A stretch of DNA of 64,000 nucleotides, taken from contig JAXLZS010000001.1 in the NCBI GenBank assembly GCA_046350775.1, positions 351,930 to 415,929 on the forward strand, in the 5' to 3' direction. Positions 5,944-56,551 of the stretch are shown here, piece after piece; position 1 is the stretch's first letter; each line of letters opens with the position of its first letter. The notes beneath the pieces were generated by a model, which was given only the letters and a program-made list of their open reading frames with translations, searched no databases and was not told the DNA's origin. A program made the translations under genes and the position numbers. Origin of the DNA: Minisyncoccota bacterium (GTDB taxonomy: Bacteria; Patescibacteriota; Minisyncoccia; Phycocordibacterales; UBA5272).

Positions 5944-6560
5944 TCTTTTTTACAGATAAATTTATAACTAATTATCTTTTGTTTTTTAATTTCAGTCTCT
6001 CCAATTTCTTTTTTTAAATCTATTAATTTAAAATTTGATTTTAATAATTTTTCTTTAACTTCTTCTATAGAATCTACAAAAGAAAAACCTTCTCTAAAAT
6101 TTGAGGAACTATTGTCGAACAAATCTCCAAAAAATACTCCTTCTTGTTTAAGAGATTTTTGTATTTTAGATAAAAGATTTTCTAGTTCACCAGAAGTTGT
6201 AAAGGTTAATGAATTATTTGCAATTATTAAATCATAATAATTTTCTTTAAAATCAAAAGATTCAAAATCTTGGATTATATAATTAAAATTTTTATCTTCT
6301 GGAAATTCGACAGATGTATACTTTCTGACATCATACAAATCAACAGCAACAACATTTTTAAATCCTTTTTCTAATAAAAATTTTGATTCCACTAAAGCTC
6401 CAGCCCCTAAATCCAAAGCATTGTCTTTTTCTTTTACAAAATCGACTACTTCTTTTATTTGATAATCTATTTCTTTATTTTTTGTTAGTTCATAATATAC
6501 ATTATTCCATTTTGCATAAACTCTATCATTATTAAGAATTTTTGTATTTGGATTTTCCAT
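5940..6560 (-). CDS. class I SAM-dependent methyltransferase. The ORF is trimmed to the internal Met because the longer ORF overlaps a tRNA.
   Basis: Motif LDLGAGALVE (SAM-binding motif I). The 5' extension of the annotated ORF (to 6626) overlaps tRNA-Ile on the same strand, so I start at MENPNTK (ATG at 6558-6560). Confidence 0.55.
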   Translation of the reverse strand: MENPNTKILNNDRVYAKWNNVYYELTKNKEIDYQIKEVVDFVKEKDNALDLGAGALVESKFLLEKGFKNVVAVDLYDVRKYTSVEFPEDKNFNYIIQDFESFDFKENYYDLIIANNSLTFTTSGELENLLSKIQKSLKQEGVFFGDLFDNSSSNFREGFSFVDSIEEVKEKLLKSNFKLIDLKKEIGETEIKKQKIISYKFICKKD

Positions 6561-6567
6561 ATTACTG

Positions 6568-6641
6568 TGCTCCCACTTGGACTTGAACCAAGGACCCCAC
6601 GGATATAAGCCGTGTGCTCTAACCAACTGAGCTATGAGAGC
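6568..6641 (-). tRNA. tRNA with anticodon UAU (Ile, AUA-reading)
   Basis: 74-nt cloverleaf folded by hand: acceptor GCUCUCA/UGGGAGC, D-arm GCUC-AGUUGGUUA-GAGC, anticodon stem CACGG/CCGUG with loop CUUAUAU, T-arm CUUGG-UUCAAGU-CCAAG, discriminator A. CCA is not encoded. Confidence 0.75.
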
Positions 6642-6671
6642 TTTTACATTATATATAATAACAAAAATTTT

Positions 6672-6700
6672 TTGATTTTAAAAGTCAAAAATATTATAAT
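6672..6700 (+). promoter_or_regulatory. sigma70-type promoter for tRNA-Ser
   Basis: TTGATT at 6672-6677, a 17-nt spacer, and a perfect TATAAT at 6695-6700, about 17 nt upstream of the tRNA 5' end. Confidence 0.5.
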
Positions 6701-6717
6701 AGGAAAATAGCTTTTTT

Positions 6718-6804
6718 GGAGGATTCGCATAGCGGTTTAGTGCGCCATCTTGGAAAGGTGGTAACTGGGAAACCGGTTCGGGGGTTCGAATCCCCCATCC
6801 TCCG
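6718..6804 (+). tRNA. tRNA-Ser (anticodon GGA), class II with a long variable arm
   Basis: Acceptor GGAGGAU/AUCCUCC with discriminator G. Anticodon stem CCAUC/GGUGG with loop UUGGAAA. Long variable arm ACUGG-GAAA-CCGGU. T-arm GGGGG-UUCGAAU-CCCCC. Confidence 0.85.
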
Positions 6805-6960
6805 CAACATTTCAAAAAGCGGACTCGGTTTTGCGAAGCTACTTTCTTTTTGGGGATATGGATTTGCAAAACCTCCACTGTTTTTGAACGTACCTCTGGG
6901 CTTCCAGGATATGGGCAGAAATGCTGGCGTATTTTGGGCACAAGGACTTGGGATAAAATT
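6805..6960 (+). repeat. partial, diverged copy of the 3' part of repeat family A (see 25919-26215), immediately 3' of tRNA-Ser
   Basis: gcggactcggttttgcgaa...ggggatatggatttgcaaaacctcc...gggcttcc aligns with the A-repeat segment gcggactcggttttacgaa...ggggaaaaggattcgcaaaacctcgg...gggtttgg. The overlapping ORFs 6716-6964 and 6678-6941 are not credible genes. Confidence 0.5.
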
Positions 6961-8373
6961 CTAGACCTCTTTAATCAAATTAGAGATTGGAACTTTGAGA
7001 AAGAAACTTTTTGCCTGTGCTAAAATTTCATCGCCCTTTTTAATAACTGCCGACATCCAAAACTTTCTCATATCAGTTTCTTTCTCGCAAGTAACTTCTA
7101 TTGTCACTTCTTCGTCAGTTGGTACGGGTTTTAAAATCTCAATTTTTGATAATTCTCGAGCAACCATTATAGATTCACTTGGCAATAATTTTGCAAACCC
7201 GATCGGGACACCCATAGAAGCATCTAGCGCAAAAGCGACCGAACCACCATGCATATTACCACCGACTGCTTGGGATTTTTTTGGGAAAGAAGTAGTTAAT
7301 GTTGCCGATATAATATCTCCTTCTTTGTTGTAATTAAGGTTAAAATTTTGCAAATCCAAATCAAAAAAATTATAAAGTTCCTTTGTATCTTTCTCAAAAT
7401 ACTGATTATAGAATCTTTTAGCGTTTTCAGGGAAAGAGTTATATAAATCTTTTAAAGTTTCGGTTTTTATAACTTCAAGATTATTTTCTTTTCTATTCAT
7501 TTTGCAAACTAAAATACAAGGAGTATTTAGAATAGAACTTTTAACTTCCTCTGATATATTTTGATATTTTTCTAAATCTTGTATCTCTAGTCCACGCTCA
7601 AGACTTATGACTTTTACATCAAATCCTATTTTTGAAAAATAATCTTTTGCCTCCCTTAAATCCTTGAACGCCAAAGACTCTTTTTGTACCCCAGAGACTT
7701 CATAAAAATTTTGCAACAAATTTCTTGATTCTTCCGACCATTTTGATCTATCTGCCCCCAACCCTTTTTGTGTAGCAATATCAAAAATTGCCACACCACC
7801 ATTACTTAACATATTTTTTATATTCAAGAATGCATTATCAATTTGATCTTTCTTGAAATAAGTAAATACACCTTCAGCAACAACACAAACAGGCTTTTGT
7901 TCGAGTTCTTTTATAATCTCTATTGTTTGATTTGGATTTATAATATCTAATTCTTGAATTCTGACTTTGCTATTTGAGTCAAGTTTTTTTATTTCTTCTC
8001 TGTTTTTAATATTATCTTCCAAATCAGTATCAAAATATGTAGCAAATTGGTTTTGTAACTCTAAAGACCTACTACTAAGCCCAGCTCCGATTTCGACCAT
8101 TTGGTTAATATCTAGATTTTGCTTTTCCTCAATAATTAAACTATTTATTGTTTTATGTCTCGCCTCAACAAATAACCCAATTTCTTCGGTTTTGTCATAT
8201 TTTTCCTTATCAAGATAGCCCTCTATATTTCTGTTGCTTATGTCTACAATATTAGTGTAAATCGGATTATATAAAAATTGTGCTTTTAATTTCGCGACAA
8301 CATCAGCAGTATTAACTAGAGAGTTTTCTGGGGTTTTCTTTGTGATTTTAGAGTTAGAGTTTGGTTTTTCCAT
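6961..8373 (-). CDS. two-domain protein: N-terminal LCM/TcmP-like SAM-dependent O-methyltransferase fused to a C-terminal hotdog-fold (PaaI-like) thioesterase
   Basis: MTase motifs VEIGAGLSSR and AEGVFTYF. The C-terminus has GGNMHGGSVAFALDASMG, typical of the PaaI/4HBT hotdog thioesterase family. Confidence 0.5.
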   Translation of the reverse strand: MEKPNSNSKITKKTPENSLVNTADVVAKLKAQFLYNPIYTNIVDISNRNIEGYLDKEKYDKTEEIGLFVEARHKTINSLIIEEKQNLDINQMVEIGAGLSSRSLELQNQFATYFDTDLEDNIKNREEIKKLDSNSKVRIQELDIINPNQTIEIIKELEQKPVCVVAEGVFTYFKKDQIDNAFLNIKNMLSNGGVAIFDIATQKGLGADRSKWSEESRNLLQNFYEVSGVQKESLAFKDLREAKDYFSKIGFDVKVISLERGLEIQDLEKYQNISEEVKSSILNTPCILVCKMNRKENNLEVIKTETLKDLYNSFPENAKRFYNQYFEKDTKELYNFFDLDLQNFNLNYNKEGDIISATLTTSFPKKSQAVGGNMHGGSVAFALDASMGVPIGFAKLLPSESIMVARELSKIEILKPVPTDEEVTIEVTCEKETDMRKFWMSAVIKKGDEILAQAKSFFLKVPISNLIKEV

Positions 8374-8559
8374 AACATAATTTTAACATTTTTAGAGTAT
8401 TTTTCCAAGACTTACTCCCTCTGTGCCCAAAATCCTCCTGCATTTTGTTTTAGTATTCATTCATCAGGATTCTAGGCAAAGTATTTTAAAACTTCATCCA
8501 ATACACTCCGCCAAAACACTATAAATATATTAATTTTTAAATATAAAATGATATAATTT

Positions 8560-8997
8560 TTGTATAAAGATATGAATATATTAAATAGTTTTACATCAAA
8601 TTATAATTATGAGACTTATGCTGACCTTATAAAGCCAACATGGGCTCCACCAAATTATCTTTTTGGCCCTGTCTGGAGTGTTTTGTATACAATAATATTA
8701 ATTACTTTTGGCTATGTATTTTATTTATATTATAAAAAGAAAATTAAATTCAACATTGTATTACCTTTTATTTTAAATTTAATTTTTAATTTTTTATTCA
8801 CTCCTATTCAGTTTGGATTAAAAAATAATTTACTAGGATCTATTGATGTGATACTAGTCTGGGTCACTCTTGTTTGGGCTATGTACAAAATATATAAAAA
8901 TAAAAAAAGTATAGTTTTCGCCAATATTCCATATCTCGCCTGGGTATCTTTCGCTACCATACTACAGATAACTATAACTTTTTTAAATATAAAATAA
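8560..8997 (+). CDS. TspO/MBR (tryptophan-rich sensory protein) family membrane protein
   Basis: 145 aa with 5 predicted TM helices and Trp/Pro-rich motifs (PTWAPPNYLFGPVWSVLY) characteristic of TspO. Confidence 0.55.
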   Translation: MYKDMNILNSFTSNYNYETYADLIKPTWAPPNYLFGPVWSVLYTIILITFGYVFYLYYKKKIKFNIVLPFILNLIFNFLFTPIQFGLKNNLLGSIDVILVWVTLVWAMYKIYKNKKSIVFANIPYLAWVSFATILQITITFLNIK

Positions 8998-9015
8998 TGA
9001 TAATATAAAAAATAT

Positions 9016-10356
9016 ATGCAAAAACAAGAAAATGAAGAAAAAGAAATCGTGTCAGAGATAGATGTGTCTGAAAAAATTATTATCACAAAAAAAAGTTTTA
9101 TCTCAAAAAGTAAAGAATACATAGAAAAAATTGGGCCAGGCATAATCACTGGAGCAGCCGACGATGATCCATCTGGTATAGCAACATATTCTCAGACGGG
9201 AGCTCAATATGGTACAAGACTACTTTGGCTTTCAGCCTGGACTTTTCCTCTCATGGCAATAATTCAAGAAATGTGCGCACGCATCGCACTGGTCACAGGC
9301 AGAGGGCTAGCAGCAAATATAAAAAAAGTATTTTCTAAAAAGATACTTTATGTCTGTACTATACTTTTATTTATCGCAAACACTTTTAATATCGGAGCTG
9401 ATATTGGTGCCATGGCAAAAGCTTTTGAACTCATTTATCCAAAAATAGATTTCAATTTTTTAGTTGTATTCATTGGACTACTAGTCTTAGCTTTAGAAAT
9501 AATAATCCCTTATAAAAGATATGTGCAATATTTGAGATGGTTTGTACTTTCACTTCTCGCCTATATCGCCACAGGTCTAATAATAGATATGCATTGGGCA
9601 AGTTTATTAAAAGATACTATCATACCTCATATGTCTTTTGGTAAGGATGAAATATTTTTGATCACTGGTATTCTTGGTACCACAGTATCCCCTTATCTAT
9701 TTTTCTGGCAAACAGCTGAAGAGATTGAAGAAGAGATAGTAGAAGGTAAGACAAGCATAAAAGAAAGAAAGGGTACAAATAAAGAAGAAATAAGTAAGAT
9801 GAGAAAAGATGTCTGGTTTGGTATGTTTATATCAAATCTTGTAATGTTCTTTATCATTGCTGTCTGCGCTAACACTCTTTTTATAAACGGGATAAATAAT
9901 ATCGGTACAGCTGACGAAGCAGCTCAAGCTCTTGCACCTTTAGCAGGAAATTCTTCTATGCTTTTATTTGCTATTGGTATCATAGGTACAGGATTGCTAG
10001 CAATACCAGTACTAGCAGGATCAACAGCCTATGCAATATCAGAAAGCTTTGGATGGAAAGAAGGTCTTTATAGAAAATACAAATCAGCACAATCATTTTA
10101 TTGGGTGATAATAATATCTATCATCATAGGGATCATAATGAATTTCTTAAATATTAATCCTGTAAAAGGACTAATATATGCTGCTGTCTTAAATGGCATA
10201 ATAGCCCCTATTATACTTATATTTATAGTAAGAATTAGTAGTAGTAAAAAAATTATGGGAGAACATAAAAATAATTTATTTACAAAATCACTAGGCTGGA
10301 TAATAACCATCTTTATGGCAACGACAGCTATAGCTACAATCTATTCAATATTTTAA
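9016..10356 (+). CDS. NRAMP-family divalent metal cation transporter (MntH-like)
   Basis: 446 aa polytopic protein with the NRAMP signature GPGIITGAADDDPSGIATYSQTGAQYGTRLLW. Confidence 0.7.
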   Translation: MQKQENEEKEIVSEIDVSEKIIITKKSFISKSKEYIEKIGPGIITGAADDDPSGIATYSQTGAQYGTRLLWLSAWTFPLMAIIQEMCARIALVTGRGLAANIKKVFSKKILYVCTILLFIANTFNIGADIGAMAKAFELIYPKIDFNFLVVFIGLLVLALEIIIPYKRYVQYLRWFVLSLLAYIATGLIIDMHWASLLKDTIIPHMSFGKDEIFLITGILGTTVSPYLFFWQTAEEIEEEIVEGKTSIKERKGTNKEEISKMRKDVWFGMFISNLVMFFIIAVCANTLFINGINNIGTADEAAQALAPLAGNSSMLLFAIGIIGTGLLAIPVLAGSTAYAISESFGWKEGLYRKYKSAQSFYWVIIISIIIGIIMNFLNINPVKGLIYAAVLNGIIAPIILIFIVRISSSKKIMGEHKNNLFTKSLGWIITIFMATTAIATIYSIF

Positions 10357-25885: not shown

Positions 25886-25918
25886 AAACTCCTAATCATT
25901 AGGAGTTTTTTATTTTTG
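25886..25918 (+). terminator. rho-independent terminator
   Basis: Perfect hairpin AACTCCTAATCATTAGGAGTT followed by TTTTTATTTTT. Confidence 0.6.
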
Positions 25919-26215
25919 GAGTATCTCTATGACACTGCTCGAACTTACTTTATCAAAAATTCGTGAGAATATCCACAAAATCGCACATCCGTGCGCTAAA
26001 GCTCCTCTGTGCGAAGCACAGAGCTTTTCCAAAGGAAAAGAACGTAATGTGCGAATACAAATGCGGACTCGGTTTTACGAAAACATTTTTCTGGGGAAAA
26101 GGATTCGCAAAACCTCGGCTATTTTTTTGAAATTCGGCTGGGTTTGGATTCTCGCGCGCAGGAGGGGTCTGGGGAGGAATGCGCGCGGGCTTCGGCTTGG
26201 TGTGGTGGGAGATAT
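25919..26215. repeat. repeat A, left copy: GC-rich, hairpin-dense element, inverted relative to 29394-29704
   Basis: About 245 bp (25919-26162) appears essentially identical to the reverse complement of 29460-29704 on visual alignment. The similarity continues imperfectly to about 26215, with a 26-bp indel flanked by gcgcgc(a/g)gg direct repeats. It contains perfect hairpins such as CTCTGTGC-GAA-GCACAGAG and GCACATCCGTGC. The ORF 25929-26258 is a repeat artefact. Confidence 0.8.
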
Positions 26216-26248
26216 AGAAAAATTTTTAAAAAATGTTATAATTTCCTC

Positions 26249-26995
26249 ATGTTTTTAGAAGTTAAAAATCTTCGTTTTGCTTTTTGGGATAACAAGAGCA
26301 AACAAATACTCAAGAATATTTCGTTTTCTTTGGAAAAAGGAAAAACGCTTGTTATTGTTGGCTCATCAGGATCAGGAAAATCAACAATTTTACGTCTTAT
26401 CTCTGGCATTTTACCAGAAAAAGATGATTTATTTTCAGGACAGATTTTGATAAATAATGAAAATTCAAATAAGTTTTTAGAAAAAGGGAAATTGAGTTTC
26501 ATGTTTCAACAGCCAGCTTTATTTCCCAACTATTCTGTAAAAGAGAATATAGAGATTCCCATGAAGATTAAAAATGAAAAAGAAGATGTAAAGAATATTA
26601 TAGATACAGTCGGATTAACCAAATATCAAAATTATCTACCCAAACAACTCTCTGGTGGAATGAAAACGAGAGTTGCTTTAGCGAGAAGTTTTGTAACCAA
26701 ACCAGAATTATTACTGTTAGATGAACCTTTTTCCGCGCTTGATATTGCTTGGAAAGACGCCCTATATCACGAATTAAAACAACTCGTGAATAGTTTCAAT
26801 ACAACAGTAGTTCTTGTTACTCATGATATTGAAGAAGCATTGAAATTGGGCGATAAAATTATTTGTTTAGGTATAGATGGCGATATAATCTTTGAGAAAA
26901 ATAATGTGAGTGAGCAAAATTTATCTTCTCTATTGGAAGAAAAGATTATTGAAAATCATAAATTAAGAAAAAAGAAGTATGAAAAAATTTCTTAA
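26249..26995 (+). CDS. ABC transporter ATP-binding protein (NitT/TauT nitrate/sulfonate/bicarbonate family)
   Basis: Walker A GSSGSGKST, signature LSGGMKTRVALAR, Walker B LLLLDEP, H-loop VTHD. The start is placed at MFLEVKNL because the upstream part of the ORF lies inside repeat A. Confidence 0.85.
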   Translation: MFLEVKNLRFAFWDNKSKQILKNISFSLEKGKTLVIVGSSGSGKSTILRLISGILPEKDDLFSGQILINNENSNKFLEKGKLSFMFQQPALFPNYSVKENIEIPMKIKNEKEDVKNIIDTVGLTKYQNYLPKQLSGGMKTRVALARSFVTKPELLLLDEPFSALDIAWKDALYHELKQLVNSFNTTVVLVTHDIEEALKLGDKIICLGIDGDIIFEKNNVSEQNLSSLLEEKIIENHKLRKKKYEKIS

Positions 26996-27716
26996 ATATA
27001 CAATTTTAATATTCGCTGTTATTGCTATTTGGCAATATTTTGGAACTACAAATTCTATAGTAAGATTATACATCTCCTCACCCTCTCTTATTATTGATTA
27101 TTTTAGCGTAAATTATCTCAGACTTTTGGAGGCAACAATGATAACTTTTGCGGAAGCTTTTCTAGGGCTGATTTTTGCAACACTATTGAGTTTTACGATA
27201 ATGGTTATCTGTTTTTATAGACCAAAATTTCTGGAGTTTATATTACCAATAATGGTTACATCGCAAGTAATACCTATAATTGTTCTTGCACCATTTTTTA
27301 TAATTCTTTTTGGAATTGGTTTAACTTCAAAAATAGTTATGGCTATGGTTATAAGTTTCTTCCCGATATTTGTAAATTTTGTTCAAGGATATAAGGCTAT
27401 TCCGAAAAATATTCATGAGATAATGTTTATTTATAAAGCTCCAACAAGTTTTAAAATAAAAAATGTATATTTCCCACTAGCGATGCCCAGTATTATGGCT
27501 GGACTTAAAATCAGTGCGACATTATCTGTGATAGGTGCAATTGTTGCAGAGTTTACAGGGGCAAAACTTGGTATTGGAAAAAATTTATTTGTGAGTTCTA
27601 TACGACTTGATCCTGATTTAATGATGACATCTTTAATACTTGCATCCTTTATTGGGTTGGTTATTTATGGTATAATTAGACTGGTAGAAAAACAATATGG
27701 ATCATGGTACCAATAA
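26979..27716 (+). CDS. ABC transporter permease (TauC/SsuC-like)
   Basis: 245 aa with 6 TM helices and a BPD-type inner-membrane permease architecture. Its start overlaps the ATPase stop. Confidence 0.8.
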   Translation: MKKFLKYTILIFAVIAIWQYFGTTNSIVRLYISSPSLIIDYFSVNYLRLLEATMITFAEAFLGLIFATLLSFTIMVICFYRPKFLEFILPIMVTSQVIPIIVLAPFFIILFGIGLTSKIVMAMVISFFPIFVNFVQGYKAIPKNIHEIMFIYKAPTSFKIKNVYFPLAMPSIMAGLKISATLSVIGAIVAEFTGAKLGIGKNLFVSSIRLDPDLMMTSLILASFIGLVIYGIIRLVEKQYGSWYQ

Positions 27717-27738
27717 TTATTAACATTTAACTTTTTTT

Positions 27739-28734
27739 ATGAAAAAATACATTTTACTAATCATTTTATTAATATTATCAGTTCTAATAATTTTTGTTTT
27801 TGTAAGTAAAAAAGATGCTGCAAAATTAACTACTAATCAACAGGCGTCACTCCAATTCAGTTGGATTCCATCAGGTTCATTTGCTGGAGATGTTGTTGGA
27901 ATAAAAAAATTCGATGAGAAAAATAATATTGATATATCATCCTCATTTGGAGGGCCAGGTATTAATCCAATACAAATGGTAATAAGTGGACAAAAAACAT
28001 TTGGATGGGCGGGGTCTGATGAAGTACTGGCCGCTAATGATAAAGGTGCTGATTTAGTGATAATTGGATTAATTCACTATTATCCTCCGGTTGGATTTGC
28101 GTCATTTAAAGAAAAAAATATTAAGACACCAAAAGATTTAGAAGGTAAGAAAGTCGGCATACTCCCGTTTGGTAACTCAACAATGGTATATGAGACCATG
28201 TTGAAACAAAATGATGTAGATAGAAAAAAAATTTCTGAAATTACCATATCAAACGACTTGAAACCTTTTTTAAATGGTAGTTATGATGTTCACCCTATTT
28301 ATGTTTATGATGAAATAGTTGATCTTGAGAAACAAAATCGTGAGTTTAATATTATAAAACCAGAAGATTTTGGAGTCAGATCCATAAAAGGTTATGTGTA
28401 TTTTACAAAAAAATCTACACTTGATAACAATCCAGAATTAGTGAAATCTTTTATTGATACTATGGCTGATGGATGGAATTTTGCAATAAAGAATCCAAAA
28501 GCTGCAATAGATATTTTAAAAGAATTTGCTCCAGAAATTGATATAGATAGAGAAATTAAGGTGCTTCAAAATGGCATTCCGTATTTTACTAACTATAATA
28601 AACAACCGATAAATTCTGATATTGATAGTTGGAATACTATGATAGAAACATTGAAACAGACAGGCATTATCAAGGACACTCCAGATCTATCAAAAGTTTT
28701 ACAATTTCAGTTTATAAACGAGTATTATAAATAA
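27739..28734 (+). CDS. ABC transporter substrate-binding protein (NMT1/SsuA/TauA-like), membrane-anchored
   Basis: An N-terminal TM anchor followed by a periplasmic-binding-protein type 2 fold. It completes an ATPase-permease-SBP operon. Confidence 0.7.
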   Translation: MKKYILLIILLILSVLIIFVFVSKKDAAKLTTNQQASLQFSWIPSGSFAGDVVGIKKFDEKNNIDISSSFGGPGINPIQMVISGQKTFGWAGSDEVLAANDKGADLVIIGLIHYYPPVGFASFKEKNIKTPKDLEGKKVGILPFGNSTMVYETMLKQNDVDRKKISEITISNDLKPFLNGSYDVHPIYVYDEIVDLEKQNREFNIIKPEDFGVRSIKGYVYFTKKSTLDNNPELVKSFIDTMADGWNFAIKNPKAAIDILKEFAPEIDIDREIKVLQNGIPYFTNYNKQPINSDIDSWNTMIETLKQTGIIKDTPDLSKVLQFQFINEYYK

Positions 28735-28739
28735 AATTT

Positions 28740-29417
28740 ATGGACATTGACTTAAAGCAGTATAACCCTGTTGTTGATTCATACTCAGAGCAAATCAATG
28801 AGATGAATAAAAAATCTAATTCTGAGTTTAGAGATGCTTTTGAATCTATAAAACTAAATGGAGTTAATGTTGTTGAATTTGGTTGCGGGGCGGGAGATTT
28901 AATTTCATATATAAAAGATCACGGATTAAAATATTCTGGTATTGATAGCTCTGAAGAAATGATAAATTCGATCAAACAAAAATTTTCAACTGATGTAAAT
29001 GTGAAGGTTGGGGATTTTACAAAAACCACTTTTACTAAAAAAAGTTTTGATTTAGTTTTTTCAAAATGGGCAATTCAAACTATTGATAATGTAGATTTAG
29101 CTTATAAGGAATCTGTGCGTCTACTTAAAGATGACGGATTTTTACTATTTTTGGTGGTTCATCCAATAAGACATTTTTTAGAAAAGAAAAAGAAAGGCAA
29201 AAATTATTTTACTCAAGAATTAGTAGAATCCGTAATTTTTAGTGGAACAATAACAGTCAGAGAACCGTCTCATACAGTAAGTGAATATTTTAGTGATTAT
29301 TTTTTACAAAATTTTAATTTATTAAAAGTCCATGAATCTTATGAATTTCCAGGAGCAGAACAAATAAATGGAGATATTTATCCAACCCATTTATTATATA
29401 TTGCTCAGAAGAAATAG
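28740..29417 (+). CDS. class I SAM-dependent methyltransferase
   Basis: Motif I VVEFGCGAGDL. It is the last gene of the cargo block and its stop abuts repeat A'. Confidence 0.6.
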   Translation: MDIDLKQYNPVVDSYSEQINEMNKKSNSEFRDAFESIKLNGVNVVEFGCGAGDLISYIKDHGLKYSGIDSSEEMINSIKQKFSTDVNVKVGDFTKTTFTKKSFDLVFSKWAIQTIDNVDLAYKESVRLLKDDGFLLFLVVHPIRHFLEKKKKGKNYFTQELVESVIFSGTITVREPSHTVSEYFSDYFLQNFNLLKVHESYEFPGAEQINGDIYPTHLLYIAQKK

Positions 29418-29704
29418 GAATTTTACCTCCCACCTTCGCCAAAAAACAAAAAGCCGAAGCCTGCGCGCGAGAATCCAAACCCAGCCGAATTTCAAAAAAA
29501 TAGCCGAGGTTTTGCGAATCCTTTTCCCCAGAAAAATGTTTTCGTAAAACCGAGTCCGCATTTGTATTCGCACATTACGTTCTTTTCCTTTGGAAAAGCT
29601 CTGTGCTTCGCACAGAGGAGCTTTAGCGCACGGATGTGCGATTTTGTGGATATTCTCACGAATTTTTGATAAAGTAAGTTCGAGCAGTGTCATAGAGATA
29701 CTCC
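29394..29704. repeat. repeat A, right copy (inverted orientation)
   Basis: Reverse complement of 25919-26215, as described there. The ORF 29394-29834 on the minus strand is a repeat artefact encoding the same 78 aa as ORF 25929-26258. Confidence 0.8.
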
Positions 29705-29860
29705 ATAAACGAACAAAATGGTTCGGAAGATGCCAAATGGTGGGACGCACGAAGTGCGTCCCACTGTGTTTGCCCTGATTCTGCGGGGGAATTCGGAAAT
29801 GTGGGCGCGCTTGCGCGCACCTGTTTTTCGCCAAGGGCGAGGTTCAAAATCCAATACAAT
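29705..29860. repeat. repeat C, left copy: GC-rich hairpin-dense element, inverted relative to 31408-31554
   Basis: About 150 bp matching the reverse complement of 31408-31554 with a few substitutions. It directly abuts repeat A' at 29704/29705. Confidence 0.8.
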
Positions 29861-29909: not shown

Positions 29910-30006
29910 CTAACTATGTTGAATCCATTATTAGATAGTTGGCAGAAAGGGCTATTTCAGCTTTCTAACTATCGTTAGGATTCAACACTGAAGTAGCCCT
30001 TTCTGC
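29910..30006 (+). promoter_or_regulatory. interleaved inverted repeats in the recombinase 5' leader
   Basis: tgttgaatcc (29918-29927) pairs with ggattcaaca (29978-29987), and gcagaaagggcta (29942-29954) pairs with tagccctttctgc (29994-30006). The arrangement is X Y X' Y', ending 16 nt before the ATG. Confidence 0.4.
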
Positions 30007-30021
30007 TTTAAGAAAAAATAT

Positions 30022-31614
30022 ATGCAAAAATTCTTTTTATACGCTCGCAAGTCTACCGATGTGGAGGACAAGCAAGTGTTGAGTATTGAAGCGCAGTTGC
30101 AAGAGCTTCGTGATTTTGCCAAGCGAGAAAATATCGAAATAGTTTGCGAATTTATAGAAAAACAATCTGCGAAAATTCCGGGTCGTCCAATTTTTAATCA
30201 AATGATCTCGCAGATTGAAAAAGGATTCGCAAACGGCATTCTTGCTTGGCACCCTGATAGACTTGCTCGCAATAGTGTCGATGGAGGACGCATAATTTAC
30301 CTTGTGGACGAGAAAAAATTAGAATTTCTGAAATTTATTCAGTTTTGGTTTGAACCTACACCACAAGGCAAATTTATGCTCTCCATCGCCTTTGGTCAAA
30401 GTAAGTACTATGTGGATTCTCTTTCTGAAAATACCAAACGCGGTTTGCGACAAAAGATTCGGCGCGGAGAATATCCAGGACTTTCACCTGTGGGATATAT
30501 CAATGATTCTAGAACTAAAACTGTCGTGGTAAACAAAAAGACCGCGCCGATCATTCGCCAAGCGTTTGAGATGTATGCAAAGGGAAATATATCAATGGAT
30601 AACATCGGTGTATTTTTTGAAGCAAATCGCTTGTTTGGAAAAAATGGAAAGAGAATCCACAGAACGCGAGCATACTATATTCTTGCGAATCCATTTTACT
30701 ATGGACATTTTCGGTATATGGGAGAAATTTACGAAGGTAAATACGAGCCAATCGTGTCAAAGCAACTTTTTGACAAAGTACAAGAAGTGATGAAGCAGAA
30801 AAGTCGTCCAAGACATAAAGAAATATCTGAACCACAAGCGTATTGTGGACTGTTGTCATGTGCCACTTGCGGAATGATGATAACTGGCGAATACAGGGTG
30901 AAAACACAGAAAAATGGCACACAACATTTCTATACTTATTATCACTGCACCAAGAAACGCAGAGATATGAAATGTCCTGAATCCTGTATTCGCCAGGAAG
31001 TCTTGGACGAACAAATTTCATCACTTCTTCAAAAAGTTTCTATGCCACGAGACTGGGCGGATTATTTACACGAAAGATTACAAAAAGATAAAATGGAATC
31101 CGCCCAGTCTGTTTTTGCTTTTGTTGAGAAAAACGAAAAAAAGATAAAAGACATTGAGGTGAAGTTCCAGCGACTTTTGGAGGGATATTTAGACCAAGAT
31201 ATTGAGAAAGAAATTTATCGTGAAGAAAAAGCAAGATTGTTATCTGTAAAAAAGTCGCTTGAGGAGGAAATATCCAAGAACCAACAAAAACAAAAACATT
31301 GGCTCGAACCGATGGAAAAGTGGATAAAGGACGCACAGAATATAGAAAAAATTGCATTGGATTCCGACCTTTTTGCGAAAAAGGTCTGCGCCAAAGAAAT
31401 CTTTGGCTCGAACCTCTCCCTTGGCGAAAAACAGGTGCGCGCAAGCGCGCCCGCATTTCCGAATTCCCCCGCAGAATCAGGGCAAACACAGTGGGACGCG
31501 CTTCGCGCGTCCCACCATTTGGCATCTTCCGAACCATTTTGTTCGTTTATGGAGCCACTTGTCAGATTCGAACTGACGACCTACGGTTTACAAAACCGTT
31601 GCTCTACCAACTGA
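30022..31614 (+). CDS. large serine recombinase (serine integrase family)
   Basis: Resolvase catalytic domain (YARKSTDVEDKQVLSIEAQ, HPDRLARN), recombinase domain, zinc beta-ribbon (CGLLSCATCGMM...YHCTKK...CPESC) and a long coiled-coil. It is visibly GC-richer than its surroundings. The last roughly 65 codons run through repeat C' and overlap tRNA-Thr, so the true stop is uncertain. Confidence 0.85.
   Translation: MQKFFLYARKSTDVEDKQVLSIEAQLQELRDFAKRENIEIVCEFIEKQSAKIPGRPIFNQMISQIEKGFANGILAWHPDRLARNSVDGGRIIYLVDEKKLEFLKFIQFWFEPTPQGKFMLSIAFGQSKYYVDSLSENTKRGLRQKIRRGEYPGLSPVGYINDSRTKTVVVNKKTAPIIRQAFEMYAKGNISMDNIGVFFEANRLFGKNGKRIHRTRAYYILANPFYYGHFRYMGEIYEGKYEPIVSKQLFDKVQEVMKQKSRPRHKEISEPQAYCGLLSCATCGMMITGEYRVKTQKNGTQHFYTYYHCTKKRRDMKCPESCIRQEVLDEQISSLLQKVSMPRDWADYLHERLQKDKMESAQSVFAFVEKNEKKIKDIEVKFQRLLEGYLDQDIEKEIYREEKARLLSVKKSLEEEISKNQQKQKHWLEPMEKWIKDAQNIEKIALDSDLFAKKVCAKEIFGSNLSLGEKQVRASAPAFPNSPAESGQTQWDALRASHHLASSEPFCSFMEPLVRFELTTYGLQNRCSTN
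31408..31554. repeat. repeat C, right copy
   Basis: Inverted copy of 29705-29860. It ends in ...gtttatggag, overlapping the CUCCA 3' terminus of tRNA-Thr. Confidence 0.8.
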
Positions 31615-31625
31615 GCTAAAGTGGC
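31550..31625 (-). tRNA. tRNA-Thr (anticodon UGU), CCA encoded
   Basis: GCCACUU-UA-GCUC-AGUUGGUA-GAGC-A-ACGGU-UUUGUAA-ACCGU-AGGUC-GUCAG-UUCGAAU-CUGAC-AAGUGGC-U-CCA, folded by hand. Confidence 0.85.
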
Positions 31626-55954: not shown

Positions 55955-56343
55955 GGGAGTGTCAGGATTCGACACTTAATTCTTTGTAAATGTGGTCTTC
56001 GATAATGAAAGTGAATCGCTAAAAAACTTTCACCTACGCTGCAAACAATACAGCAAAAGCAATCCGCTCACCATTTATGGCGTACGGATTCGCTCCAGTA
56101 GCCGCTTAATTTTAAGCCGCTCCGGTGTCACCTCTCACTACATGACGTGGGAGATCTGACAATATAAAGATCATGTGTAGAAAATTTTCTTTTCGTATTT
56201 ATGAAAATTTTTGAAATGTAAAAATACTAAGCTAGATAATTTTTCTTATTTTATATATCTAGTCGAAAAATAAAAAATAAGATATGAGACTAGAGTCATT
56301 TATAAAAATTAATTGCACGGGGGTTCAACTCCCCCCACTTCCA
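55955..56343 (+). ncRNA. ssrA: tmRNA (SsrA)
   Basis: The 5' end GGGAGUGUCAGGAUUCGACAC carries the conserved GGAUUCGAC box. The 3' tRNA-like end is CGGGGGUUCAACUCCCCC + CACUUCC + A, and the acceptor pairs GGGAGUG/CACUUCC. The internal tag frame ends ...MAYGFAPVAA followed by UAA-UUU-UAA. Confidence 0.85.
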
Positions 56344-56551
56344 CAAAATCAGTTAATTAAACTTAATAATAAACCACATCAAAAGTCTCACGAAGAGATA
56401 AAGTAAAAATACAATACACCAAATAAATTTTTCAAAAAGTGAGACCAGAAATGAATCCATATAAAAATAAAATATCAAAATAATAAAAGTTTTACAAAAA
56501 TGACTTTTTTATGGATTGTGTTATAATTAACATTATAAAAACATAAAAACT

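Follow-up and report, generated by a model that had tools for sequence, protein, structure and literature searches.

Introduction

The streamlined genomes of Prochlorococcus, which lack conjugation, reportedly carry small tRNA-targeting elements called tycheposons; some are said to use large serine recombinases (LSRs), their cargo is said to be metabolic or nutrient-related, and they are said to duplicate part of the tRNA at the far element end. The yeast 2-micron plasmid relies on FLP, a tyrosine recombinase that acts on FRT x FRT and amplifies a replicating plasmid, while integron attC sites serve a tyrosine integrase, have direct orientation and show little conservation in their loops. Here we describe a locus that can be compared with each of these. 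It lies in a 64,000-nt stretch of a Minisyncoccota genome (contig JAXLZS010000001.1, positions 351,930 to 415,929 of the forward strand; the whole stretch is called the window below). In this window a decayed copy of a repeated module, the A module, follows tRNA-Ser(GGA), and a complete element with two further copies, A1 and A2, occupies tRNA-Thr(UGU).

We conclude that 6806-6935 is quite likely the immobilised scar of an element that was once integrated at the 3' end of tRNA-Ser(GGA). The integrated layout of the family to which the scar belongs is tRNA, core, c, LSR, c', core', A, cargo, A' and core, with c' and A' the inverted copies of c and A. Loci from other genomes are cited by our locus numbers (L).

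A relic of the A module behind tRNA-Ser(GGA)

An earlier note, made from the letters of the window, had proposed a third copy of the A repeat immediately 3' of tRNA-Ser and on the same strand. This is where we find it: the relic starts 14 nt past the tRNA, on its strand, and lies 19.1 kb from A1 (Table 1). The motif GCGGACTCGGTTTTRCGAA occurs three times in the window, at 6819-6837 (+), 26063-26081 (+) and 29541-29559 (-); 100 shuffles gave 0.01 matches on average and never as many as three. A second motif, GGGGANANGGATTYGCAAAACCTC, lies at 6852-6875, 26093-26116 and 29506-29529, with a chance expectation of 0. Between the relic and A1/A2 the identities in the two motifs are 18/19 and 21/24. 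An nhmmer profile made from 86 family copies from other genomes, with the window left out, matched 6814-6884 (envelope 6794-6952) with 52.8 bits and E = 2.8e-16, and covariance model R1, which was built without the relic, aligned to 6823-6935 end to end with 49.6 bits and E = 4.2e-10. With these motif counts and E-values, the existence of the third copy is confirmed.

The first 75 nt or so of the relic, which contain hairpin 1, hold nearly all of the homology signal. A profile of the distal part of A alone gave no match in 6876-6965, so we used a pairwise test against family members instead. With Smith-Waterman this piece scored 35.65 against family members versus 24.4 +/- 2.4 for shuffles, above 200 of 200 shuffles, while against A1 alone the result was marginal and 10 of 200 shuffles were equally good. 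The decayed copy of about 150 nt that had been described is thus real and does better than shuffled sequence, but its distal half is barely recognisable.

In the covariance model alignment, the stem of hairpin 1 (6827-6837 x 6863-6873) keeps 11 of 11 pairs, one of them G-T. Its loop (6838-6862, 25 nt) is recognisable, with the conserved TCTGGGG motif split by a 4-nt insertion, and the RNA fold of 6806-6895 (+) has -26.3 kcal/mol (z = -3.99). In hairpin 2, five of nine stem pairs are broken, and the loop is 4 nt shorter and substituted. Given this failure of hairpin 2, the relic is, by its sequence, a decayed member of the A-module family. The open reading frames (ORFs) at 6716-6964 (+) and 6678-6941 (-), already dismissed as artefacts, overlap tRNA-Ser, have no NCBIfam match and do not keep their frame across copies, and we agree with that dismissal.

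Only 13 nt separate the end of tRNA-Ser from the flank of hairpin 1. By eye, these nucleotides (AACATTTCAAAAA) are similar to the start of c in Ser-type elements (AAATTTTCGAAAAGGG in L045, AGATTTTCGAAAAGGG in L081), a likeness too short for statistics that is suggestive of a c-module remnant. The relic has no outer attachment (att) arm, as the nhmmer alignment begins at profile position 273 of 509, and the tRNA-Ser locus has no recombinase. There is also no inverted partner: neither nhmmer --max at E <= 10 nor the covariance model found a further copy in the 64-kb window. Since it has no partner A copy, the relic cannot move.

The relic and the A copies at tRNA-Thr belong to different subfamilies, with GGGGATATGGATTT in the hairpin-1 loop of the relic versus GGGGAAAAGGA in A1/A2. 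The loop and 3' stem variants of the relic (GGGGATATGGATTTGCAAAACC) fit a subfamily of other genomes (L024, L047, L066, L082), and a BLAST search with the relic ranks the copies of L097, L046 and L035 above A1/A2. The relic therefore points to a separate, older integration. In other genomes tRNA-Ser(GGA) bears full elements (L045, L021), and truncated A copies with differing breakpoints are fused to intact tRNAs elsewhere (L125, L063, L023, L071).

A complete element at tRNA-Thr

All three junctions of the window element share 5 bp. With a slash at the junction, attL reads tRNA...GGCTCCA/TAAACG, the internal junction, read on the other strand, GAGATACTCCA/TAAACG, and attR GAGATACTCCA/AAAATAAAA. 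The empty site predicted from these is tRNA-Thr-CTCCA followed by the bidirectional terminator of the upstream gene. By looking up the upstream 236-aa protein we found contigs with the empty site among near-identical metagenome contigs of the same sample series (L127-L134), one of which is the 48-kb contig on which the tRNA-Ser region is also found. The exact empty site (flank-TGGAG-tRNA-Thr, ...ttattttTGGAGccacttg...) is present in L127, L129 and L131, where ...aggagttttttattttTGGAGccacttgtcag... equals the predicted attB. In the empty-site contigs the 236-aa gene lies directly before ...aggagttttttattttTGGAGccacttgtcagattcgaac..., and a 139-aa gene, EF-Ts and S2 follow.

Filled and empty sites differ only by the element and one copy of the short core. 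The segment 25922-31554, 5,633 bp with one core copy counted in, entered as a single insertion and is polymorphic in the population; the window element has moved recently. Because empty sites of the same population have neither A nor C, the whole A-cargo-A-C-recombinase-C' arrived as one unit, which contradicts the earlier suggestion that A lay directly downstream of tRNA-Thr before a C-recombinase-C' unit was inserted.

From the outside in, A1 has the P arm of the att site, the optional multi-hairpin insert, hairpin 1 (26071-26114), hairpin 2 (26151-26189) and a G-rich end. The A1 x A2 inverted repeat is 98% identical over 257 nt and the C x C' repeat 97% over 145 nt. C consists of the P' arm, a GC hairpin with a GAAG loop, and an inward-facing, terminator-like GCGCGCTTGCGCGC with a T-run. 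Only one of the two A copies is complete, although the window element is apparently young. Compared with A1 (26160-26190), A2 (29456-29480) has a 27-nt deletion in which the loop and 3' strand of hairpin 2 are gone. A promoter-like site lies at the start of the cargo (26215-26242), and the binding protein homologue of the window is typed as NMT1. The recombinase matches the Pfam domains Resolvase (E = 1e-22), Recombinase (E = 4e-14) and zinc ribbon (E = 4e-7); the protein has no record in the gene-position index.

Table 1. Features of the relic and of the complete element in the window.
Feature	Position	Strand	Evidence
tRNA-Ser(GGA), putative past integration target (attB side)	6718-6805	+	ARAGORN; Rfam tRNA 52.2 bits
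Possible 13-nt leftover of c outer end (attL side)	6806-6818	+	likeness by eye
Hairpin 1 of relic A module	6819-6875	+	motif matches, nhmmer, covariance model, RNA fold
Decayed hairpin 2 of relic	6889-6935	+	covariance model alignment; weak above-shuffle similarity
Core TGGAG, attR, distal element end	25917-25921	.	junction analysis; empty sites
A1, complete A module	25922-26212	+	inverted repeat with A2; nhmmer E = 8e-88; covariance model 112.8 bits
Cargo: ATP-binding cassette (ABC) ATPase, permease, NMT1-type binding protein, S-adenosylmethionine (SAM) methyltransferase	26215-29417	+	Pfam; ORFs; promoter scan
A2, inverted A	29420-29700	-	inverted repeat; nhmmer; covariance model 61.3 bits
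Internal core CTCCA	29701-29705	.	junction analysis
C module	29706-29845	+	inverted repeat with C'; terminator scan
LSR	30022-31614	+	Pfam Resolvase, Recombinase, Zn_ribbon_recom
C', inverted C, abuts tRNA (attL)	31410-31549	-	inverted repeat; junction analysis
tRNA-Thr(UGU); last 5 nt CTCCA (31550-31554) are the shared core	31550-31625	-	ARAGORN, Rfam, junctions

The conserved part of the recombinase ends at about 31400, and the ORF stays open through C' into antisense tRNA-Thr (31400-31614 +). The recombinase ORF of a distant element likewise runs through c' into the tRNA antisense strand (L045:1183-1549, minus). Since the ORF crosses c' into the tRNA, a C-terminal tail, if translated, would differ between the integrated and the excised state.

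At the other end of the gene, upstream of the start at 30022, the 5' untranslated region (UTR; 29917-30005, +) can form a pseudoknot-like fold. Its pairings are GTTGAATCC x GGATTCAAC, TTAGATAGTT x AACTATC, and GCAGAAAGGGCTA x TAGCCCTTTCTGC, the last with its 3' strand outside the first hairpin. All three are kept in L010:188-283 through compensatory changes (GTTGAAACC/GGTTTCAAC; GCAGAAATGGCTA/TAGCCATTTCTGC). The fold had no match in Rfam, and it may be a translational control element of the integrase.

Past the relic, 6961-10356 holds genes for an LCM-like methyltransferase, TspO and Nramp, with unremarkable GC content; none of the three is among the cargo of the loci we fetched. A tRNA-Ile(UAU) gene (6567-6641, -) adjoins tRNA-Ser, and L097 has one too. 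In most bacteria AUA is read by a lysidine-modified CAU tRNA, and a genomic tRNA-Ile(UAU) is uncommon. The window also has a standard one-piece tmRNA at 55955-56346 (+; Rfam 85.8 bits), which is unrelated to the relic or the element.

Attachment sites and integration

The predicted attP site is made of the outer 45 nt or so of the A module and of the c module around a core of 3-5 bp. This core spans tRNA positions 72-74, that is C72, the discriminator and C74, and reads CTC(CA) in Thr, C(C)GC in Ser and CAC(C) in Arg, Leu and Phe tRNAs. In the family the outer att arm of A has core' and then ..TATACAAAGCTCGAACCTATTTT... We compared the half-sites of nine loci and found GTTCGAR/TTCCGAA 19-20 nt from the core edge in both the P arm (A outer end) and the P' arm (c outer end). 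In the B arm, which is the tRNA, the T-loop (GTTCGAAT/GTTCAAGT) lies 14-16 nt from the same core edge, so that the motif sits 4-5 bp further from the core in the attP arms than the T-loop does in the tRNA; the B' arm has no such motif in this comparison. For the LI/A118 integrase, the motif of the zinc ribbon domain lies at positions 16-24 in attP and 11-19 in attB, a shift of 5 bp (PMC3783163). The outward shift that we see in attP thus matches the attP/attB offset known for serine integrases (PMC3783163).

From these arrangements, the LSR would join attP to the extreme 3' end of the tRNA gene, with attP arms that would mimic the T-loop for recognition. The T-loop is universal, so any tRNA with a discriminator that matches the core could be a target. 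The discriminator is probably part of the crossover dinucleotide and would then decide which class of tRNA an element can enter.

The internal junction is the reverse complement of the A1 outer end, followed by the core and the C' outer end. CTCCA with the outer arms of A2 and C would thus form a complete inverted copy of the predicted attP, and in the family the c'-core'-A junction would act as a second, inverted attP. Given this second site, an excised circle should hold two inverted repeats of about 440 bp, each with an attP, and these would separate the segment with the recombinase from the segment with the cargo. In L010 the recombinase segment has the opposite orientation to that of the canonical loci, which means that both isomers exist.

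Two other ideas about the att arms were rejected. MAFFT aligned the proximal half of A with tRNA-Ser, as if it were a decayed copy of the tRNA. However, the attP arm mimics the T-loop with an offset of 4-5 bp, and there is no cloverleaf. By reasoning only, we also dismissed a folded single strand that rebuilds attP, since double-strand exchange with a fold-back would leave hairpin-capped chromosome ends.

Stem-loops of the A and c modules

The outermost part of A is the att arm. Inward of it come an optional insert of several hairpins, with mini-hairpins of the GCGAAGC type among them, then hairpin 1, a spacer and hairpin 2, and finally a T-run and the G-rich end. In the family form, hairpin 1 has a stem of 11-16 bp and a loop of about 20 nt (..TTTTCTGGGGnAAnGGA..), and hairpin 2 has a stem of 9 bp or more and a conserved loop of 17-19 nt (GGAGGGGTCTGGGGAGGAA or GGAGGGTGCGGGAGGAA). 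The conserved loops are purine-rich (..TTTCTGGGGAAAGGA.. and GGAGGGGTCTGGGGAGGAA). Hairpin 2 has at least 55 different complementary stems. Hairpin 1 seems invariant in copies that were found by its own sequence, but in a sample anchored on hairpin 2 its stem varies freely (GGCGGGGCAA/TTGCCCCGCC, GGCAGGGCGAA/TTCGCCCTGCC, GGCAAAACGAAAA/TTTTCGTTTTGCC and others) and the loop ..TTTTCTGGGGnAAnGGA.. is kept.

We counted pairing in 119 distinct metagenomic A copies, which gave 1979 cells over 20 pairs. Of these cells 97.8% were paired, compared with 73.9% when shuffled and 33-55% in slid registers. Compensatory changes were present in 18 of the 20 pairs (371 cells), only 7 of 1979 cells were G-U, and 44 of 1979 were unpaired. 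As G-U is rarer than mismatches, the counts suit a hairpin or cruciform in DNA, or a hairpin that both transcripts need, better than an RNA made from one strand.

The stem-loops of A face inward beside every att site, and a terminator scan found an inward-facing terminator-like hairpin with a T-run in both copies of the c module. Next to hairpin 1 lie an A-run and a T-run, and next to hairpin 2 lies a T-run. Because these terminator-like features stand beside strongly transcribed tRNAs, insulation of the att junctions is reasonable as a partial function; however, it does not explain the conserved loops of 17-25 nt. Our best guess is that the body of A would be a cis-acting signal, read as an extruded DNA hairpin, or an insulator that folds on both transcripts.

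A bolder proposal is that A and c, with their conserved hairpin loops, GCGAAGC-type mini-hairpins and G-rich runs, are strand-specific signals on single-stranded DNA (ssDNA) or cruciforms, and that the inverted repeats give each strand one forward copy and duplicate att. They might then serve the establishment of a minimal element, only a serine integrase with cargo, after ssDNA uptake by transformation, or a flip-flop like that of the 2-micron plasmid, which would make the family a new gene shuttle across the phyla of the Candidate Phyla Radiation (CPR). Natural transformation is the uptake route on which Patescibacteria are thought to depend. We regard this whole proposal as rather doubtful.

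Hairpins closed on GCGAAGC, GCAAAGC or CACGAAGTG recur in A and c at many loci (for example 26020-26040 and 29742-29766 in the window), and the two C copies differ by a compensatory change (GCACGAAGTGC vs GCGCGAAGCGC). The sequence d(GCGAAGC) forms an unusually stable DNA mini-hairpin of single-stranded phage origins. A search of the relic, A and C against Rfam 15, at the gathering threshold and at E <= 5, returned only tRNAs, tmRNA and noise, with the tRNAs and the tmRNA alone reaching the threshold.

Three further explanations for A were tried and dropped. It is not protein-coding, as the ORFs across it change frame between copies (window, L014, L017). The palindrome of hairpin 1 is no double-stranded protein site with conserved arms; in the hairpin-2-anchored sample the arms vary freely and the loop is conserved. 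Nor is A a constant 5' leader for the cargo, since the genes between the A arms may point in either direction.

The element family across Patescibacteria

The A core is present in at least 119 stretches of GTDB species genomes of Patescibacteria, including Nomurabacteria, Paceibacterota, Saccharibacteria, Moraniibacteriota, Uhrbacteria, Yanofskybacteria and others, often as +/- pairs 1.7-7 kb apart. With a scan anchored on a different part of A we matched at least 120 contigs from metagenomes; in viral contigs, scanned for the A core, there was no match. In 23 of the GTDB loci listed, an LSR 43-80% identical to that of the window adjoins an A copy. All loci in which the tRNA can be seen have one order, namely tRNA, c, LSR (antisense to the tRNA), c', A, cargo and A'. 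The elements sit at the 3' ends of tRNAs for Ser (GGA, UGA, GCU), Thr, Arg, Leu, Glu and Phe, which bears out the prediction of a family associated with tRNA 3' flanks.

The cargo changes from one element to the next, and its genes can point either way between the A arms. Among the products encoded are reverse transcriptases, a MazF toxin, an NMT1-type ABC transporter, an ADP-ribosyltransferase, enolase, methyltransferases, ribonucleotide reductase and a phosphoenolpyruvate (PEP)-utilising enzyme. The reverse transcriptase at L013:2351-3376 matches Pfam RVT_1, and L013:5955-7064 and L042:3100-4179 are similar by eye; a MazF-like toxin is encoded in one further cargo and an ART-PolyVal domain in another. 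Some of the cargo pool thus looks defence-related. Minimal elements hold only the LSR and cargo. No candidate gene for a recombination directionality factor was obvious, in a survey that included no search aimed at one.

The distant genome of L124 shares with the window the order GT2, 236-aa gene, tRNA-Thr, EF-Ts and S2, with host proteins 40-47% identical. At the orthologous tRNA-Thr (L124:4770-5350) there is an A...C' of about 570 bp, which keeps both att arms whole and lacks recombinase and cargo. Its full A and full C' are joined by 130 nt, and by eye both are close to those of the window. The site indicates horizontal spread, and its A...C' is a candidate non-autonomous form that resembles a miniature inverted-repeat transposable element (MITE). 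The outer part of the L124 A belongs to the window subfamily and its hairpin loops to the other (GCGGGAGG) subfamily, a mix that suggests mosaic recombination between A variants.

Other loci depart from the layout in different ways. In the recombinase-less L094:2065-2125 and L121:1918-1970, a perfect short palindrome replaces c-recombinase-c'. It consists of the first 20 nt or so of c in both directions, includes the last 5 nt of the tRNA and resembles a bidirectional terminator; template switching is one possibility for this symmetric collapse of c. Several A copies are cut in the 3' strand of hairpin 2 (the minus-strand copy of L028 and the distal A copies of L067, L074, L087, L114, L042 and L012) and run on into other conserved sequence, ...AAAATTGTCTCAGTCAT or ...TTGTCTCGGGCAT. 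They may represent a further type of junction, or a second element with A as its target.

Origin of the relic

In the history that we favour, an element at tRNA-Ser would have lost, through an internal deletion, the greater part of c together with the recombinase, c' and the outer 150 nt or so of A with its att arm. Hairpin 1 and a hairpin 2 in decay would then have been left immediately after the tRNA. A remnant of an earlier integration was among the candidates of the earlier note, and it fits the evidence. Several points weigh against it. No recombinase, att arm, partner A or duplicated core is seen at tRNA-Ser, so that the past integration is deduced from the anatomy of the family and not seen. 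Hairpin 1 is still a perfect stem while the rest of the relic has decayed, so it may be kept for a function. We infer LSR recombination, the circular form and the arrangement of two attP sites from sequence, and the elements offer no obvious directionality factor, as said above.

Chance or low-complexity similarity could appeal to the failure of the distal-only profile in the last 80 nt, but E-values from 1e-10 to 1e-16 from models without the window copy already refute it and leave it practically no probability. A recent copy of A1/A2 made within the genome by ectopic recombination or gene conversion would account for the close motif identities of two loci that are 19 kb apart in one genome. 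We find it highly improbable, because the variants and BLAST ranking of the relic put it with the subfamily of other genomes, and because it sits at a tRNA 3' end in the orientation of a proximal A, the exact place where the family integrates. The earlier note had also considered a structured tRNA trailer or small RNA gene, which would be a host feature co-transcribed with tRNAs and merely captured by the elements. It would suit the position of the relic directly 3' of tRNA-Ser on the same strand, the A cores that lie 59-176 nt downstream of a same-strand tRNA in several other genomes, and the strong covariation in both hairpins. However, most copies form inverted pairs that enclose cargo next to an LSR, which puts half of them antisense to the tRNA, and the LSR-less loci L094 and L121 have their terminator-like perfect palindrome between the tRNA and A. 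Added to this, G-U pairs make up 0.35% of cells, below outright mismatches and unlike typical RNA helices; the empty tRNA-Thr site has no such trailer, and no Rfam family matches. A trailer is therefore very unlikely.

Co-option of hairpin 1 as a bidirectional terminator between the convergent genes for tRNA-Ser and the LCM-like methyltransferase (6961-8373, minus) is a different matter, since it is compatible with an origin as a relic. We hold it to be possible, though on balance unlikely. It would explain why hairpin 1 is whole and hairpin 2 decayed. An A-run precedes hairpin 1 and a T-run lies beyond it (TTCAAAAAG...CTGTTTTTGAA); read on the minus strand, TCCGCTTTTTG comes after the stem. 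A consensus scan of 6400-7200 on both strands found no other terminator-like site. Folding beats shuffles on both strands (z = -3.99 and -2.61), and the strict Watson-Crick stems of the family are what one expects of a hairpin needed on both transcripts. Intrinsic terminators, however, have a GC-rich stem, a loop of 3-8 nt and a U-run within 0-2 nt of it, and the relic departs from this: its loop of 25 nt is far above the canonical size, its T-runs begin 5-9 nt past the stem (9 nt on the plus strand), and the scan tool does not call hairpin 1. A young relic alone may also explain the intact stem.

Significance

The relic itself is ordinary, and its value is that it leads to a large family of minimal integrative cassettes in Patescibacteria. 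To our knowledge these bacteria have tiny genomes and no known conjugation, and the family would offer a vehicle for the exchange of enolase, ribonucleotide reductase, PEP-utilising enzymes, ABC transporters, reverse transcriptases and toxins. An element would need one enzyme, which in the window has 459-530 aa, and an attP of about 60 bp, predicted at about 29676-29735 there, with the 3' end of essentially any tRNA gene as attB and a core that is apparently programmable. One sampled population contains both the filled and the empty allele. A serine integrase able to read the T-loop of tRNAs, if this is what the LSR does, could be of interest for genome engineering, and the two strict Watson-Crick stem-loops with conserved loops are a highly conserved nucleic-acid motif. 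If the proposal of ssDNA or cruciform signals holds, the family would carry genes of metabolism and defence from one CPR phylum to another by way of the universal tRNA T-loop and 3' end, and the discriminator base in the core would set the target class.

A full-text literature search of incomplete coverage found no description of the family. Its mechanism appears to be that of an LSR integrative element, with an LSR that is a distant member of its group. The family differs from such elements in its target (tRNA 3' end and T-loop), its minimal gene content, its double inverted repeats and its conserved stem-loops.

Comparison with known systems

With LSR islands, phage-type integrases and the Ccr recombinases of staphylococcal cassette chromosomes (SCC), the elements share a three-domain LSR, precise insertion, a very short core and a recoverable empty site. 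The named family nearest to the window LSR is CcrB, with 127.7 bits where the cut-off is 900; phage integrases are at most 28% identical to it, and the protein falls far below any NCBIfam cut-off. Serine-integrase elements also resemble ours in their pseudo-symmetric attP and in the offset of about 5 bp between the attP and attB motifs, as in LI/A118 (PMC3783163). The differences from LSR elements are that the target is the universal 3' end and T-loop of many tRNAs and not one gene, that the content is minimal with no phage or conjugation gene, and that nested inverted repeats (145 and about 290 nt) would create a second, inverted attP, with stem-loop modules beside the att arms.

Tycheposons, as they are commonly described, are closest in concept, being small tRNA-targeting elements with cargo. 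They occur in another phylum, and in our elements only 3-5 bp are repeated at the far end. We know of no description of a double inverted-repeat layout or of hairpin modules for tycheposons. In layout the yeast 2-micron plasmid comes closest: the predicted circle would likewise have two site-bearing inverted repeats and two unique segments, one with the recombinase, and both orientations occur. This is an analogy of layout only, because here the enzyme is a serine integrase, there is no replication gene, and attP x attP recombination is not expected.

Among solo relics and MITE-like derivatives, the truncated copy at tRNA-Ser with no enzyme, the gene-less L124 and the A-cargo-A of L094/L121 with its collapsed c all find parallels. 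Unlike MITEs, these derive from a site-specific integrative element and not from a DDE transposon, and the relic, without att arms, is not mobilisable in trans. Integron attC sites are similar in that structure is kept while stem sequence is free, pairing is strictly Watson-Crick and hairpins flank gene cassettes; the elements described here differ in having conserved loops, hairpins away from the crossover point and a serine recombinase.

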